Origin: an uncultured Treponemataceae bacterium
Lineage (GTDB): Bacteria > Spirochaetota > Spirochaetia > Treponematales > Rectinemataceae
Direction of reading: 5' to 3'
Length of the DNA stretch: 64,000 nt
Assembly (NCBI GenBank): GCA_964644505.1
Contig: CAZXXZ010000009.1
Coordinates: 4,366-68,365 of the forward strand
Shown: one piece after another, positions 25,339 through 32,964 of the stretch
Numbering within the stretch: position 1 is the stretch's first letter
How the letters are laid out: each line of letters begins with the position of its first letter
The notes under the pieces: generated by a model
Databases searched by the model: none
What the model was told of the DNA's origin: nothing
Seen by the model: the letters and a program-made list of their open reading frames with translations, nothing else
Program-made: the position numbers and the translations under genes

Positions 25339-25431
25339 CTGCGGCTTACTTGAAACATTCCGCGTTTTTCACTACAAGTAGTTGGGTACGGACCGCCCTG
25401 CCCCTCGATCCCCTGCACAAGGAGACCTGAA

Positions 25432-27258
25432 ATGACTCTCGATTCTCTTAAGCACAGCAGACTCAAGGCTTGGATCAGCGATTTCGCCGCTATCGCGACC
25501 CCCGACAGTGTGGAGATATGCGACGGCTCGAAGGCCGAGTACGACCGCATGATCAAGATCACCGTGGATTCCGGGATGGCGACCCCGCTCAATCCCGCAA
25601 AGAAGCCCGGTTGCGTAGCTTTCCGCTCCGATCCCACGGATGTAGCCCGCGTCGAAAACAGGACCTATATCGCGTCGAAAACGAAGGATGATGCCGGTCC
25701 GACGAACAACTGGATCGACCCCGTCGAGCTCAAGAAAATCATGATGGATCTCTACAAGGGTTGCATGAAGGGGAGGACCATGTACGTCATTCCCTTCTCC
25801 ATGGGCCCCATCGGCAGCCCCATCGCCAAGATCGGCGTCGAGATCACCGACAGTCCCTACGTCGTCGCCAACATGCACATCATGACCCGCGTGGGTACAA
25901 AGGTTCTCGACATCCTCGGCACCGACGGCGAGTACGTGCCCTGTTATCACTCGGTCGGCAAGCCCCTCGGCCCCGGCGAGTCCGACAACGGCAAGTGGCC
26001 CTGCGCCCCCCTCGACAAAAAGTACATATCGCACTTCCCGGAAACCCGCGAGATCTGGTCCTACGGTTCCGGGTACGGCGGAAACGCCCTCCTCGGCAAA
26101 AAATGCCTCGCGCTTCGAATCGCCTCGGTCCAGGCCCGCGACGAGGGTTGGCTCGCCGAGCACATGCTCATCCTCAAAATCACGAACCCCGCGGGCGAGA
26201 GCAAGTTCATCGCAGCGGCCTTCCCCTCGGCCTGCGGCAAGACCAACCTCGCCATGCTCGTCCCCACCATCCCCGGCTGGAAGGTCGAGACGATCGGCGA
26301 CGACATCGCATGGATGAAATTCGGTAAGGACGGCAGACTGTACGCGATCAATCCCGAGGCGGGCTTCTTCGGCGTCGCGCCCGGCACCAGCATGGAGTCG
26401 AATCCCAACGCCATGATCGCCGCGAGCAAGAACACCATCTTCACCAACTGCGTCGTCACCGAGGACAAGGACATCTGGTGGGAGCAGATCGGCTATCCCG
26501 CCCCCGCCGGCAAGAACATCGACTGGAAGGGCAACGAGTGGCACGAGGGCATGAAGGACGCCGAGGGCAAGCCGATTCTCGGCGCCCATCCGAACGCGCG
26601 CTTCACAGCCCCCGCCGCCCAGTGCCCCTGCATCGCCAAGGAGTGGGAAGATCCGAACGGCGTGCCCATCTCCGCCTTCCTCTTCGGCGGCCGCAGGCCC
26701 AGCACCATCCCCCTCGTGCACATGGCCCGCGACTGGAACCACGGTGTCTTCCTCGGTTCGATCGTGGGATCGGAGATCACCGCGGCCGCCCTCGACCTCA
26801 AAGTCGGGACCATCCGCCGCGATCCCTTCGCCATGCTTCCCTTCTGCGGCTATCACATGGGCGATTACTTCCAGCACTGGATCAACATCGGAAAGAGAAC
26901 GAGCCCCGACAAACTTCCCAAGATATTCATGGTCAACTGGTTCCGCAAAAAGGACGGCAAGTTCGCCTGGCCCGGCTACGGCGAAAACAGCCGCGTCCTC
27001 AAGTGGATTTTCGAGGCCTGCGCCGGTACGGCGAAGATGCAGGAAACAGCGATCGGCTTTATGCCGACGCCCGACGCCATCGATCCGCCGGCCGGTGTGA
27101 GCAGGGAGACTCTCGCCGAGATACTCTCGGTCGACAAGGAAGGCTGGCTCAAGGAGATCGAGGATATCCGGAAAGAGCATTATCCGAAGTTCGGCGATCG
27201 GCTTCCGAAGGAGCTGAACGCCCTTCTGGACACGCTCGAGAATAACTTGAAGAAGTAA
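25432..27258 (+). CDS. pckG: Phosphoenolpyruvate carboxykinase (GTP)
   Basis: 608 aa, GTP-type PEPCK sequence throughout ([10 protein letters not shown]-loop). AAGGAGA upstream. Confidence 0.97.
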
Positions 27259-27295
27259 CAATCCCTTCGACGCGATTTTCAGCATCATGCAGCGC

Positions 27296-27334
27296 AAACC
27301 CGCCGGTTTTAGCCGGCGGGTTTTTCTTTTTTTT
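27296..27334 (+). terminator. Rho-independent terminator of pckG
   Basis: 11-bp perfect stem AAACCCGCCGG / CCGGCGGGTTT, 6-nt loop, followed by TTCTTTTTTTT. Confidence 0.85.
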
Positions 27335-27419
27335 AAGACAGATATTTCCGCCGACGCGATGATATACTTTTCTCCATCCTCTCGGCATTATCCGGCTCCC
27401 GACTTGGACAGGAGGAAGT

Positions 27420-27875
27420 ATGGCAAAAACGAAGATCATTCCATCAGTCCGAAGAATCACCGTCGACGAAAAGCTTTCCGACGATCTCATCCGCCTCGAG
27501 ATATGCACCCTGAAGTGCTGGAACGATGCGACGGGCGAGTTCGTGGACCTGCCGGACGATTGGCTGTGCTCCGATGACGCTTATCCGCTGGCGTGCCCCT
27601 CGGCCGGAGACGGAGCCGGGAGACGCTACTATGTCGAGTTCATGGGTATACCTGAGTCGATGACGGGAAAGTACCCATGGAACAGCTTGCACGAGGGTCA
27701 AGTCTTTCTTTCAGGCGAATTCCGTATCGAACGCAGTTCTGAAGAAGGTGCCGAGAGTGTACGGTTCTTCGTGAGCCCCGGGAATTCGGCCTTCGAGCGG
27801 ATCGACGACATGGTGAAGCGGTGGACGAAAACTTTGTATTACGAAGTCATCGCCGGAGGATCGAATCATGGCTGA
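27420..27875 (+). CDS. Hypothetical protein (151 aa), translationally coupled to the MBL-fold gene
   Basis: AGGAGGA RBS. No TM segment, signal peptide or motif that I recognise. Stop codon overlaps the downstream start (ATGGCTGA). Confidence 0.65.
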   Translation: MAKTKIIPSVRRITVDEKLSDDLIRLEICTLKCWNDATGEFVDLPDDWLCSDDAYPLACPSAGDGAGRRYYVEFMGIPESMTGKYPWNSLHEGQVFLSGEFRIERSSEEGAESVRFFVSPGNSAFERIDDMVKRWTKTLYYEVIAGGSNHG

Positions 27876-28923
27876 GTACACGACAACGAGCGGCGATCTC
27901 ATCATCGGAATCCTCAACGTCGGATTCGGAGACAGCATCGCCATACGCTTTCCGAAAGCGGGGACTGTGTATCCCGTCGGCGTCGTTGATTGCTGCGATT
28001 TCAAGAAAATGAAATCGTTCATCGAGGATGTCACAGGCGGGAAGTTTTTGATTGAGTTCATTTGTGCGACGCACCCTCACGCGGACCACATCCGCGGCAT
28101 CGACTCGCTTTTGAAAGATAAAAACTTTTCACCGAGGGAGTTCTGGGACAGCGGTTTTCGCCACAACTCGACGACATACCGGCGCATCCTCACTACGCTC
28201 AAGGACAAGGGCATTCGGACAATACGCGCCTCGTCGGGCATGGAGAGGTACATCGGTGCGGTGAGCATCACCGTCGTCGCGCCTTCGATAAGTCTGCGCA
28301 ACCGCTACGCCACCTACGGCGTCGACATGAACAACGCGTCGATCGTGCTTCGTCTCGAACATCACGCGCGGGACGCCCTCGATATACGTTCGGAAGACTA
28401 CGAAGGCGATATAAGCAGGGAGATGATACGGGAGGCCGGCTCTTCGGTCGTCATCCTCGCGGGCGACGCCGAATTCGACTCGTGGAGCCACATTGCGCAG
28501 GAGTTCCCCAAACTCGAGAAACAGAAAGGGAACGAACCGCTCATAAGCAAGATGGTCAATTACCTCGCCTGCCATACGATCAAAGTCGCCCACCACGGGA
28601 GCATGCACAGCTCCCCGCTCGACATATACGAGAAGATGGGACCCAAGCTCGCGGTCATCTCGACGAAACAGGAATCGAGCAGCTCGAGGGCCGGTACTCG
28701 GAATCTATTCCCGCACGATCTTTGCGTCCGCGCGCTCGAGGAATGCGATGCCGGGATTCTTACGACGGACGGCAGTCATGACACGGCGAAGGCTGCTTCG
28801 GGTAGACCGGGAACTGTCGTGATCGCCGTCCCGCCGGGTGAGAAGCCGCGCTGGACGAAGCTCGGGGACGGCGAGACCGAAAACGCCGAAGTACAGGAAG
28901 TTATGAAACTCGAGGGGTTCTGA
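27868..28923 (+). CDS. Standalone metallo-beta-lactamase-fold protein of the ComEC/Rec2 C-terminal-domain type (putative nuclease/hydrolase)
   Basis: 351 aa. LNVGFGDSIAI, ATHPHADHIRG (HxHxDH at 28072-28089), NASIVLRL, LAGDAE, KVAHHGS. This order of motifs matches ComEC-type MBL domains. No TM channel domain. Confidence 0.85.
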   Translation: MAEYTTTSGDLIIGILNVGFGDSIAIRFPKAGTVYPVGVVDCCDFKKMKSFIEDVTGGKFLIEFICATHPHADHIRGIDSLLKDKNFSPREFWDSGFRHNSTTYRRILTTLKDKGIRTIRASSGMERYIGAVSITVVAPSISLRNRYATYGVDMNNASIVLRLEHHARDALDIRSEDYEGDISREMIREAGSSVVILAGDAEFDSWSHIAQEFPKLEKQKGNEPLISKMVNYLACHTIKVAHHGSMHSSPLDIYEKMGPKLAVISTKQESSSSRAGTRNLFPHDLCVRALEECDAGILTTDGSHDTAKAASGRPGTVVIAVPPGEKPRWTKLGDGETENAEVQEVMKLEGF

Positions 28924-30200: not shown

Positions 30201-30367
30201 TGGAGCGCCTTTCCCGCAGCCTTCGATATGCTATAATTTTAGGTGCTGTGATTCTCTTGCGTCAAGCGAATCACGAAGCGTGCTTCGTCGTCTTCTACGT
30301 TGATTGCTTTTCTTTATTAAGCGGGCGATGAATCACTGTGGAACCAGACAGAAGACTGGAGGGGAAT

Positions 30368-31297
30368 ATGGACCGAAGGGAGTTTCTCAAACGGCTTATA
30401 GGCATCGGCACCGCAGGCGCTGCCATGTTCCTCACCAGGGGCCGTCTCTGGGCCCTTGACGGAACGGGGGCGTCGAGCAGTGCCGGAGCGCTGCCGGACC
30501 TCGTCGCGGTCAAGGGAGGCGATCCCGCGCTCATGCTCGATCTCGCCTTGAAAGAAATCGGTGGCATGTCGAACTTCGTTCGAAAAGGCCAAACCGTCGT
30601 CGTCAAACCGAATATTGGATGGGATCAGCCGCCCGAGGCCGCCGCGAACACCAACCCCAAGTTGGTCAAACGGATCGTGGAACACTGCATTGCGGCAGGC
30701 GCCAAGAAAGTCTATGTCTTCGACAACAGCTGCGATTCCGGTCCGCGATGCTATGCCAACTCGCAGATCGAGCGTTATGCGAAAGAAGGAGGAGCCGAGG
30801 TCGTCTCGGGCGCTTCGAGTTCGTATTACCACGAGGTTCCCATTCCCGGTGCGATCCGCCTCAAAAAGACGAAAGTGCACGAACTCATCATCGAAAGCGA
30901 CGTGTTCATCAACGTACCGGTGCTCAAGAACCATTCGGGGGCGGGAATGACCTGCGCCATGAAGAACCTCATGGGAATCGTTTGGGACCGGGGCTATTTC
31001 CATAGCAACGACCTCGACCAATGCATAGCCGATTCCTGCCTCTACAAGAAGCCGAATCTCAACATAGTCGACGCATGGAAGGTCATGCTCTCGGGCGGCC
31101 CCCGCGGATACTCGTCGAGCCGCTACTCGGAGGAAAAGATGCTTCTGCTTTCGACCGACATCGTCGCGATCGACGCGGCCTCGGCTAAGGTGCTCGGTTT
31201 TCAGCCCGAACGCTTCGGTTATATAGGCATGGGGCAGAAACTCGGCCTTGGGAAATCCGACACGTCGAAACTCGATATCCGCAGAATCACGATATGA
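30368..31297 (+). CDS. DUF362-domain protein with a twin-arginine (Tat) signal
   Basis: MDRREFLKRLIGIGTAGAAMFL Tat motif, DUF362-like body. GGAGGGGAAT precedes the ATG at 30368; the track start is 30338. Confidence 0.75.
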   Translation: MDRREFLKRLIGIGTAGAAMFLTRGRLWALDGTGASSSAGALPDLVAVKGGDPALMLDLALKEIGGMSNFVRKGQTVVVKPNIGWDQPPEAAANTNPKLVKRIVEHCIAAGAKKVYVFDNSCDSGPRCYANSQIERYAKEGGAEVVSGASSSYYHEVPIPGAIRLKKTKVHELIIESDVFINVPVLKNHSGAGMTCAMKNLMGIVWDRGYFHSNDLDQCIADSCLYKKPNLNIVDAWKVMLSGGPRGYSSSRYSEEKMLLLSTDIVAIDAASAKVLGFQPERFGYIGMGQKLGLGKSDTSKLDIRRITI

Positions 31298-32964
31298 AAA
31301 CAGAAGCCCGAAGTCCGGGATCCCGCGCAGGGGCTCGACACGGAGGACCGGCTCGGCGCATCTTTGCACGTCCTGCAAGGGCGGCGGTCTTGGTTTTCCA
31401 AGCTCTTGTCCTTGCCGTCACGATATATGTTTTTATAACAAATGCATTCGACGCCGACGCACTACGTTCCTTCGCCGCCTCATGGCAGATTTATCCCGGC
31501 CTCGCGCGTGTTTTGAGGGCGGCCTTTGAGACAGTCTTACTCGGAGCCTCGGCCGCTTCTACGCTCGGGGCGGCGATAATCGGGTTTACCCTTCCCCTGC
31601 TTCTTCTATCGGCGGTCTTCGGGCGCTGGTACTGCGCCTTTCTCTGCCCTCTCGGCACGCTGCAAGCGATAGCGGCTTCGGTCGGCGCAAAAAAAAGGCG
31701 CTATCGAAGAAACAAAAGCCTCGTGCGGATCGCCGCAGCAGTCGTCGTACTCGCGCTTTCCCTTACCGGCGCGATGGCAGCCGCTTCCTGGCTCGATCCC
31801 TGGTCTCTCTTCGGACGCTTCGTTTCGTACGACGTTCGTCCTTTGATTCAACTTGCTTCAAGAGCCGACACTCATGGATTTTCAGCCGAGACGGCGGCTC
31901 CTATCGCCTGCGTGATACTTGTTCTGCTCGTTCTGTCCGCGGCGACTAAGAGTCGATGGTTCTGCTCCACTCTTTGTCCCGTCGGCAGTCTTCTCGGTGT
32001 CTTGAATTGTATCGCACCTTTCAGGTTTCGCATCGACGATTCGTCCTGCATCTCCTGCGGTTCTTGTGAAAGAATCTGCCCGGCAGCCTGCATAGACCTC
32101 GCATCGAAACGCATCGACGACAGCAGGTGCATAAACTGCGCATCCTGCGCGTCATCCTGCCCGACACATGCGATCTATTACGGCCTGCCGATACGCGACA
32201 GGTCTCTTTCAAAGAAAGCACCTGTGGGACCCGGTTCAGAGGCGACAGCCGGGCACAAGGCTCTGAGTCGTAGAGTTTTTCTCTCGACCCTCGGCGGATC
32301 CGCTGCCATTCTCGTCCTCGCAGCCCTTCCGGGGAGGAGGGCAGCCGCGTACATACCACCGCGTTCCGGGGTCACCGTCCCCCCGGGTGCGGAATCGGTC
32401 GAACGCTTTCTCGAGACCTGCACCGCCTGCGGACTGTGCATATCCGCATGTCCCTCCAGTGTTCTGCAAGCCTCCCTCGGCGAACTTGGTCCACGAGGCC
32501 TGTACGCGCCGGCACTTGATTTTTCGGTTTCGTACTGTCAATACGAGTGCGCAGCCTGCATGACTGTCTGTCCCAGCGGAGCCTTGAGAAAACTACCGCT
32601 CGAACGCAAGAAACTCGTTAAAATCGGCACAGCCTCCCTCGTCAAGGACTACTGCATCGTTTTTACTGACCGCACGAAGTGCGGAGCCTGCGCAGAACAC
32701 TGTCCTACAGGCGCCGTGCACATGGTCTCACGGGAGGGCGGTATACCCGAACCCGTGTTCGACCCCGCGATATGCATCGGCTGCGGAGCCTGCCATCATG
32801 TATGCCCCGTGCCCGGCAAGCGGGCGATCTCGGTCGCCGGACTCGCGGTGCATGAAACCGCGCTCGAAGCGGCCGTTGATTTCTCGAACGATGCTTCCGA
32901 GGCCGATAGTAAGGCCGACACCCGATCCAATCCGGAATCAAATAAAGAGAAATTCCCATTTTGA
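31294..32964 (+). CDS. Integral-membrane polyferredoxin (NapH/MauN-like CX3CP motifs plus multiple 4Fe-4S CxxCxxCxxxCP motifs)
   Basis: 556 aa. GRWYCAFLCPLGTLQ and SRWFCSTLCPVGSLL, six ferredoxin-type Cys clusters, several TM segments. ATGA overlap with the DUF362 gene. Confidence 0.85.
   Translation: MKTEARSPGSRAGARHGGPARRIFARPARAAVLVFQALVLAVTIYVFITNAFDADALRSFAASWQIYPGLARVLRAAFETVLLGASAASTLGAAIIGFTLPLLLLSAVFGRWYCAFLCPLGTLQAIAASVGAKKRRYRRNKSLVRIAAAVVVLALSLTGAMAAASWLDPWSLFGRFVSYDVRPLIQLASRADTHGFSAETAAPIACVILVLLVLSAATKSRWFCSTLCPVGSLLGVLNCIAPFRFRIDDSSCISCGSCERICPAACIDLASKRIDDSRCINCASCASSCPTHAIYYGLPIRDRSLSKKAPVGPGSEATAGHKALSRRVFLSTLGGSAAILVLAALPGRRAAAYIPPRSGVTVPPGAESVERFLETCTACGLCISACPSSVLQASLGELGPRGLYAPALDFSVSYCQYECAACMTVCPSGALRKLPLERKKLVKIGTASLVKDYCIVFTDRTKCGACAEHCPTGAVHMVSREGGIPEPVFDPAICIGCGACHHVCPVPGKRAISVAGLAVHETALEAAVDFSNDASEADSKADTRSNPESNKEKFPF

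Follow-up and report, generated by a model that had tools for sequence, protein, structure and literature searches.

Layout of the A-B Locus

The DNA analyzed here is a 64,000-nucleotide stretch (hereafter the window) of contig CAZXXZ010000009.1 (positions 4,366 to 68,365, forward strand) of an uncultured Treponemataceae bacterium (assembly GCA_964644505.1), and our subject is a cassette of two overlapping genes within it, which we call A and B. Gene A encodes a protein of an orphan family and gene B a predicted soluble protein with the metallo-β-lactamase (MBL) fold of the ComEC C-terminal domain, and we find that the two are linked across bacteria and archaea. A first-pass annotation of the window, made by a model that saw only the sequence, had described the two genes as overlapping by 8 nt and as standing alone between a strong pckG terminator and a convergent sugar-acid gene; both descriptions hold. 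The upstream neighbor is pckG (PEPCK_GTP) and the convergent downstream neighbor is uxaE (UxaE), whose 3′ end lies 41 nt from the B stop codon. The features of the locus, some of which are shared with a Treponemataceae metagenome-assembled genome (L007) that we return to below, are listed by window position:

27296..27333, + strand: intrinsic terminator of the upstream pckG, a 12-bp stem (27296-27323, 8 GC pairs) followed by a T-run; conserved in L007
27360..27368, + strand: candidate extended -10 promoter element, TGATATACT, within the spacer of 86 nt, proposed from sequence only
27410..27415, + strand: Shine-Dalgarno sequence AGGAGG of gene A, 4 nt before the A start, read from the sequence; conserved in L007
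27420..27875, + strand: gene A, a confirmed ORF (open reading frame) of 151 residues encoding the orphan partner protein
27855..27860, + strand: Shine-Dalgarno sequence GGAGGA of gene B, 7 nt before the B start and inside the 3′ end of A, read from the sequence
27868..27875, + strand: overlap of A and B, ATGGCTGA, 8 nt that contain the B start codon and the A stop codon; translational-coupling junction
27868..28923, + strand: gene B, an ORF of 351 residues encoding a predicted soluble ComEC-type MBL-fold metallo-hydrolase, a probable Mn2+/two-metal nuclease

As the pckG terminator forms the 5′ boundary of the cassette, A and B need a promoter of their own. A scan of the upstream region with the sigma-70 consensus returned no full promoter, and the GATATACT part of the possible extended -10 element is kept in L007. 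An Rfam scan of the cassette gave only sub-threshold matches, all on the pckG terminator.

Protein B Resembles the Nuclease Domain of ComEC

The first-pass annotation had credited B with the full motif series of the ComEC C-terminal domain, and all five motifs are indeed present: GFGDS at residue 19, HPHADH at 69, NASIVL at 156, GDAE at 199, and VAHHGS at 240, with H69, H71, D73, H74, D200, H242, H243, and S245 as the key residues. Pfam matches of B to the MBL families were sub-threshold (Lactamase_B, 18.2 bits against a gathering threshold of 22.7; Lactamase_B_2, 17 against 27). The AlphaFold2 (AF2) model of B (pLDDT 81.5, pTM 0.87) has the MBL fold, with 70 MBL matches in the PDB at E <=0.001 by Foldseek, the best of which was the crystal structure of the ComEC β-lactamase-like domain (9ic4; E 8.8e-15, TM-score by target, TMt, 0.73). 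At the profile level, hhalign of 29 B sequences against 15 full-length ComECs gave a probability of 99.8% (E 4e-29), in which B aligned only to the C-terminal domain, at positions 524-790 of the 805-column ComEC profile. The score of B against the ComEC/Rec2 model TIGR00361 was 26 bits, compared to a cutoff of 190. No transmembrane segment was found in A or B (maximum Kyte-Doolittle hydropathy over 19 residues, KD(19), of 0.38 and 1.40, respectively), nor was a signal peptide found in either, and the earlier statement that B has neither a competence channel nor an oligonucleotide-binding (OB) domain is therefore consistent with both the hydropathy and the extent of the ComEC alignment.

Mutagenesis of the ComEC nuclease has defined H598, D600, D602, H603, D700, H725, and S728 as required residues (PMC12455585). 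These align to H69, H71, D73, H74, D200, H242, and S245 of B, respectively, all seven of which are invariant in 29 diverse B sequences. The B family as a whole has 77 invariant columns and a mean identity of 57% across phyla and domains. It also has conserved insertions of its own at approximately residues 141-195 and 205-235, which rank among the most conserved segments of the family (e.g., RNRYATYGVDMNNAS and GDAEFDSW...PKLE), and which are modeled with low AF2 confidence (pLDDT 48-65). These segments may represent surfaces that become ordered only upon binding of A or the substrate.

We considered whether B might be a housekeeping MBL enzyme (RNase Z, RNase J, or glyoxalase II), and this was ruled out by both sequence and structure: its NCBIfam scores were far below cutoff (RNase_Z, 18.9 bits versus 293; GSH_gloB, 16.3 versus 200.8) and its Foldseek matches to these folds (~1e-6) and to ELAC were ~8 orders of magnitude weaker than that to ComEC. 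B does not cluster with any of these enzymes. The Foldseek match to 9ic4, the hhalign result, and the residue conservation agree with the first-pass view of B as a soluble MBL protein of the ComEC type that stands alone, its metal site being intact, and on the strength of its sequence and model we believe B to be a free-standing and very probably active ComEC-type metallo-nuclease domain.

A and B Form an Obligate Gene Pair

The distribution of the cassette was surveyed from both genes. In the B-anchored survey, one genome was taken per GTDB species and a pattern-limited scan identified a close B in ~37 of 185,579 species. The 37 close loci derive from more than 12 phyla and from both bacteria and archaea; the bacterial taxa include Treponemataceae, Desulfuromonadaceae, Desulfobacteraceae, Aminicenantes, Eisenbacteria, KSB1, Stahlbacteria, Anaerolineae, Dehalococcoidia, Pirellulales, Ignavibacteria, Myxococcota, Acidobacteriota, and Verrucomicrobiota, and the archaea are Bathyarchaeia (8 loci) and Heimdallarchaeota. 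Gene A is directly upstream in every locus with upstream DNA, and the only two loci in which it is not present are both cut by contig ends. The A-anchored survey recovered 80 metagenome loci, 70 of which had enough downstream sequence to be informative, and B is directly downstream of A in 69 of these. The sole exception (L112, 912-1253) has the first 15 codons of B (MAHTIRPEDLIIHFL) followed by unrelated sequence resembling a glycoside hydrolase, and is either a chimeric contig or a deletion.

The pairing is equally strict at the junction of the two genes, as 77 of the 79 distinct A/B junctions are overlaps or gaps of <=10 nt. All-against-all clustering of ORFs within +/-9 kb identified no universally linked third gene, only lineage-specific synteny. 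The divergences of A and B are correlated (r = 0.79), with A evolving faster (mean identity 0.35 versus 0.57 for B). The first-pass annotation had proposed, as a check, that homologs of the 151-residue protein should neighbor this MBL subfamily, and this is observed far more strictly than was asked. A and B are an obligate pair, linked in both directions, which occurs sporadically in anaerobic bacteria and archaea. The tree of B is mostly taxonomic within clades, yet the Bathyarchaeia are nested among bacterial sequences, indicating an old inter-domain transfer followed by vertical inheritance.

Protein A Belongs to an Orphan Family

The absence of a recognizable motif in the partner protein, noted in the first-pass annotation, extends to the libraries: A had no match in Pfam, NCBIfam, PADLOC, or PHROG. 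Homologs were identified by a word-indexed search (26) and by a profile search run exhaustively against 1.84 billion representative proteins (151), and nearly all of the 151 representatives are 120-190 residues in length. By these sequence searches A is a closed orphan family. Conservation is concentrated in a charged hairpin at the N-terminus (VRRITVDEKLSDDLIRL) and in a C-terminal block, EGQVFLSGEF...F.RID...LY, between which lies a variable center that is prone to insertions and deletions. No helix-turn-helix, ribbon-helix-helix, or AbrB domain was detected in A by Pfam or by comparison with PDB sequences. The pI of family members ranges from 4.5 to 9.8 and the copy in the window is acidic (net charge ~-8); the family is thus neither uniformly acidic, as for an inhibitor or DNA mimic, nor uniformly basic, as for a binder.

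The AF2 model of A (pLDDT 80.7) is mostly beta, with the order b1-b2-b3-short helix-b4-b5-C-terminal helix, which in the model is compatible with an OB fold. The top Foldseek matches of this model in both the PDB and BFVD were OB folds of the single-stranded DNA-binding protein (SSB) type, at non-significant values (E 0.012-0.013, TM 0.2-0.3). We regard the suggestively OB-like fold of A as a lead, not a finding.

Cold-Shock-Domain Genes and Rare Fusions

In one B subclade, a gene for a 65-residue cold-shock-domain (CSD) protein (PF00313, E 4e-17) precedes A by ~60 nt in the same orientation. Members of this subclade, in which A has 131 residues, include L004, the Bathyarchaeia loci L009 and L010, and many sediment contigs. 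The CSD gene was found by a search for small ORFs and is limited to the one clade, where the genes identified are as follows:

L004:5358-5555, CSD gene upstream of A, same strand as A
L009:6665-6886, CSD gene upstream of A, same strand as A
L010:7319-7516, CSD gene upstream of A, same strand as A
33 metagenome loci (e.g., L083-L143), CSD gene upstream of A, same strand as A

In total, the CSD gene is upstream of A in 36 of 101 informative loci, with at least four different flanking contexts, and the differing flanks suggest that CSD-A-B is a three-gene variant of the cassette. CSD genes are unusual in archaea.

Fusions of A are rare. Single proteins were found in which A is joined to an ASCH domain (P0192) or to HEAT repeats (P0169), or in which its N-terminal half is joined to a T2SSE/PilB-type ATPase (P0282), and all three may be assembly chimeras. 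One in-frame A-B fusion of 526 residues (P0257) was identified, as a single sequence on a single contig (L147). It was considered as Rosetta-stone evidence for interaction and set aside, as it is a singleton with no other fusion among the best 120 of 536 matches. Both CSD and ASCH are nucleic-acid-binding modules, and their association with A points to a nucleic-acid substrate.

The Cassette Is Old at This Site and Lies Among Housekeeping Genes

The first-pass annotation had judged the cassette by eye to be richer in A/T-ending codons than its flanks, as a sign of separate acquisition, and this part of its argument failed. Relative to 47 genes of the window (mean GC content at third codon positions, GC3, 0.730; standard deviation 0.065), the GC3 values of A (0.675, z -0.84) and B (0.738, z +0.12) are ordinary, and the sole source of the apparent contrast is the unusually high GC3 of pckG (0.849). 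Foreign composition is also rejected by synteny with L007, which carries the cassette at the same site with a nucleotide identity of 87.6%, compared to 91% and 81% in the flanking blocks. That the cassette is at the same site with an identity like that of its flanks indicates that it is older than the split of the two species. Comparison of the two genomes gives ratios of nonsynonymous to synonymous substitution rates (dN/dS) of 0.17 (A), 0.155 (B), and 0.02-0.10 (flanking genes); both A and B are under purifying selection.

In other lineages the genes flanking the cassette differ and are again housekeeping genes (e.g., FtsH/TilS/FolE, Pst-PhoU, peptidases, HMG-CoA reductase, Trm112, PanC, PlsY, and epimerases), with synteny at the level of the lineage. 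Among 150 neighbors from ~30 loci, the Pfam families matched most frequently were metabolic or housekeeping, there was no recurrent integrase or transposase family, and PADLOC matched generic ATPases and a few isolated specific models, a comparison to which no formal enrichment statistic was attached. The suggestion that such pairs fall in defense islands is thus not upheld for these neighbors. Nor did searches of 50,697 phage records, 72,556 plasmids, and IMG/VR identify any close relatives of A-B. The nearest plasmid match was a B-like MBL protein of 32% identity (L066:5465-7068) on the Streptomyces sp. NBC_01454 plasmid NZ_CP109461, which adjoins an IS701 transposase/element and keeps B-specific motifs such as EFWDAGF and VLAPSIALK. 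We examined it as a possible A-B pair and rejected it, as the 146-residue acidic protein encoded upstream is not detectably A-like; there may nevertheless be a wider superfamily in which a small partner accompanies a B-type MBL protein.

The wider neighborhood of the cassette in the window comprises sugar-acid and central metabolism genes, with matches to 6PGD, a PfkB kinase, the mannitol-dehydrogenase family, DUF362, a polyferredoxin, GFO/IDH/MocA, and an aminotransferase. The DUF362 gene (30338-31297) shares 4 nt with a gene for a 556-residue multi-[4Fe-4S] polyferredoxin-like membrane protein (31294-32964), and the two resemble a second translationally coupled pair of poorly characterized function. 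As a separate observation on the window (~59% GC), long antisense ORFs shadow its real genes, an example being the 641-residue ORF opposite pckG (25372-27297, - strand). Antisense ORFs of this kind gave false "conserved" clusters opposite B and a false second copy of A in Acidobacteria: the apparent tandem copy in loci L031, L034, and L038 was an artifact produced when a long, spurious ORF of high GC bridged sequences in single-linkage clustering, and has no match to the A profile.

A Possible Two-Subunit Nuclease and Its Alternatives

The explanation that we favor, and hold tentatively, is that A and B together make up a single metal-dependent nuclease of two subunits, soluble and cytoplasmic, with an accessory role in the processing or repair of single-stranded DNA (ssDNA) or RNA. 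B would be the catalytic subunit, a free-standing version of the ComEC β-lactamase-like nuclease domain, and from its fold and residue conservation it would cut by a ComEC-like two-metal-ion mechanism to leave 5′-phosphate and 3′-OH products. A would be its dedicated partner, made in fixed proportion to B by translational coupling. On its own, the nuclease domain of ComEC is an endonuclease and 5′-to-3′ exonuclease that depends on Mn2+; it has no DNA affinity that could be measured, and its rate rises ~7-fold once an OB fold or any other DNA-binding domain is joined to it as a tether (PMC12455585). We infer that A and B form a complex in which A is most likely a nucleic-acid-binding or substrate-presenting subunit, possibly OB-like, that supplies the substrate affinity wanting in the isolated ComEC domain, much as the OB fold does in cis; alternatively, A may be regulatory. 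In some clades the CSD protein would assist A. The cassette itself would be a self-contained accessory operon, exchanged long ago among anaerobes of both domains by horizontal transfer and passed on vertically since then alongside core genes. The pair probably takes part in the processing or repair of ssDNA or RNA in the cell rather than in rapidly evolving immunity, as a stable accessory role is favored by the high conservation, the purifying selection, the host-like composition, and the housekeeping neighborhoods.

Several observations weigh against this explanation, most of which concern A. Comparison of the A profile with PDB sequences found nothing, and the assignment of its fold from the model is not significant (best Foldseek E 0.012-0.013, TM ~0.2-0.3). 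A is not detectably the ComEC OB fold (hhalign probability 0.1% versus the 15 full-length ComECs), nor is it detectably related to CSD, for which the hhalign probability was only 7.7%, over a common L.EGQ.v.F.v motif. The variable charge of A and the acidity of the window copy are atypical of a nucleic-acid binder, and the singleton A-B fusion could be a frameshift artifact. The very patchy distribution of the pair (~37 of 185,579 species by the pattern-limited scan) is equally typical of defense or toxin-antitoxin (TA) modules. Lastly, the phosphorylcholine esterase Pce is among the proteins nearest in structure to the ComEC domain (PMC12455585), which makes a nucleic-acid substrate uncertain.

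That last point is the basis of an alternative in which the substrate of B is not nucleic acid but a small molecule or the head-group of a polymer, on which B would act as a phosphodiesterase or hydrolase in the manner of Pce/CbpE, with A as a specificity or chaperone subunit. Pce has been reported as the closest structural homolog of the ComEC domain (PMC12455585), B has sequence matches to CbpE/Pce (E 0.2-0.6) and the canonical HxHxDH motif rather than the HxDxDH of ComEC, and the conserved insertions at ~141-195 and 205-235, modeled with low confidence, also count in its favor. We nevertheless consider this the least probable of the explanations, as the fold and profile matches of B to the ComEC nuclease domain are better by many orders of magnitude, the equivalents of the DNA-contacting residues H725 and S728 are invariant in B, both proteins are predicted to be cytoplasmic with no signal peptide or transmembrane segment, unlike surface esterases, and the links to CSD and ASCH suggest nucleic acid. 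A type II-like TA or toxin-immunity module, with B as a toxic nuclease and A as an upstream, co-translated antitoxin that blocks its active site, would account for the small gene being first, the overlapping stop and start codons in most members, the faster evolution of A than of the enzyme, the acidity of the window copy, and the scattered, chromosomal, and horizontally transferred state of the pair, and the conserved charged hairpin at the N-terminus of A could be its interface. It is still very unlikely in our estimation: A has no recognizable DNA-binding or autoregulatory domain, its acidity is not consistent across the family, the pair is not associated with mobile elements such as plasmids and prophages, A and B are fused in frame in one protein (albeit a singleton), and substrate handling explains the CSD gene and the fusions of A to ASCH and HEAT better than an antidote function does.

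A further alternative, in line with the original proposal, is a compact anti-phage or anti-plasmid defense system, in which B would be a nuclease effector and A a sensor or regulator that holds B inactive until infection. We think it rather unlikely. B has weak PADLOC matches to MBL effectors (RTasMBL, 1e-9; LmuA, 6e-9; PDC-M48B, 1e-7; and Avs1a) and weak NCBIfam matches to 6A-MBL and Avs1a, but these are far below the cutoffs and lie mainly over the common N-terminal MBL motifs, and the partners of such effectors (STAND NTPase, RT, LmuB/C, E1/E2/JAB, HamAB) are all absent near A-B. A self-contained two-gene operon, a sporadic distribution with transfer between domains (the Bathyarchaeia nested among bacteria), and a partner that evolves faster than the enzyme (35% versus 57% mean identity) are all features of the kind expected for defense. 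On the other side are the housekeeping neighborhoods, in which defense-model matches were isolated and integrases or transposases were not among the commonly matched families, the lack of close relatives in the phage, plasmid, and viral collections, and the evolution of B, which is unusually conserved for an immune effector, with the dN/dS of the pair (0.15-0.17) giving no sign of diversifying selection. The contextual argument of the first-pass annotation for defense or toxin-immunity, namely an island-like orphan of foreign composition, is consequently weakened, and the conservation of B across phyla and domains together with the purifying selection on both genes weakens that proposal further.

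A broader proposal can also be made. A-B (or CSD-A-B in the one archaeal and bacterial clade) might be an undescribed two-component nuclease that moves between domains, a soluble, split counterpart of the OB-plus-nuclease module of ComEC whose cytoplasmic targets would be single strands of nucleic acid that are incoming or aberrant. It might serve as a minimal immune or abortive system, or it might process DNA in organisms where ComEC lacks these domains or is absent. ComECs of spirochetes are mostly "competence-only" and Archaea are without ComEC (PMC6299819). We offer this as speculation and consider it unlikely in the form given.

Comparison With Known Systems

The known protein to which B is most similar is the C-terminal nuclease domain of ComEC/Rec2 (e.g., the Moorella glycerini BLACT domain, 9ic4; TIGR00361), with which it shares its MBL sub-fold, its motif series, and every metal- or DNA-binding residue found to be essential by experiment. 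The need of the ComEC domain for a separate nucleic-acid-binding module for efficient activity is, moreover, reminiscent of the role that we propose for A. B differs from ComEC in having neither the competence channel nor the DUF4131 OB fold in cis, and in being predicted to be soluble and cytoplasmic, whereas the ComEC domain is on the outer face of the membrane. B also has the canonical HxHxDH in place of HxDxDH, conserved insertions totaling ~30 residues, and an added beta extension at its C-terminus; it is present in Archaea, which are reported to be without ComEC (PMC6299819), and is always paired with the orphan protein A.

Stand-alone MBL effectors of defense systems (Avs1a, DRT-associated RTasMBL, Lamassu LmuA-MBL, PDC-M48B, 6A-MBL, and HamM) are, like B, ComEC-like proteins of ~300-390 residues encoded in small operons. 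B is nonetheless distant from their models (6A-MBL, 24 bits versus 220; Avs1a, 20 versus 420), their partner genes are absent near B, and its context is not that of a defense island. A parallel in design is provided by RNase J, CPSF73 (beta-CASP), and RNase Z (exosite), in which an MBL core is likewise combined with an accessory nucleic-acid-binding element (PMC12455585), and to which B has Foldseek matches at E ~1e-6 to 1e-5; B has no beta-CASP or exosite, and its accessory element would be a separate polypeptide of a novel family. Type II TA operons resemble the cassette in having a small upstream gene coupled to a gene for a nuclease-fold protein and in their patchy, horizontal spread, and differ in that A has no antitoxin-type DNA-binding domain, the pair has no mobile-element association, and the enzyme is large and very strongly conserved.

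Neither the library models nor the papers searched on 6A-MBL, PDC-M48, and ComEC-like defense systems contained a system of A-B composition, in agreement with the first-pass annotation, which knew of no named one. In public records the genes are labeled "hypothetical protein," "MBL fold metallo-hydrolase," or, wrongly, "competence protein ComEC." The catalytic fold of B is known; what is undescribed is its obligate pairing with an orphan family and the spread of the pair, with identities of 50-70%, over more than 12 phyla of bacteria and two lineages of archaea. Judged from sequences and models, this is a predicted ComEC-type MBL nuclease that has been recruited, with an orphan partner, into a strictly conserved two-gene module common to bacteria and archaea, as distinct from a demonstrated new system. 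If A is the substrate-binding subunit, the pair would provide a natural, soluble, two-piece model of the cooperation between the OB fold and nuclease of ComEC, which is hard to study in a membrane protein; if the pair is an immune or addiction module, it would represent a new minimal architecture common to bacteria and archaea. In either case the comparison with ComEC yields a clean definition of the family, a correction to its annotation, and an experimentally tractable unknown.

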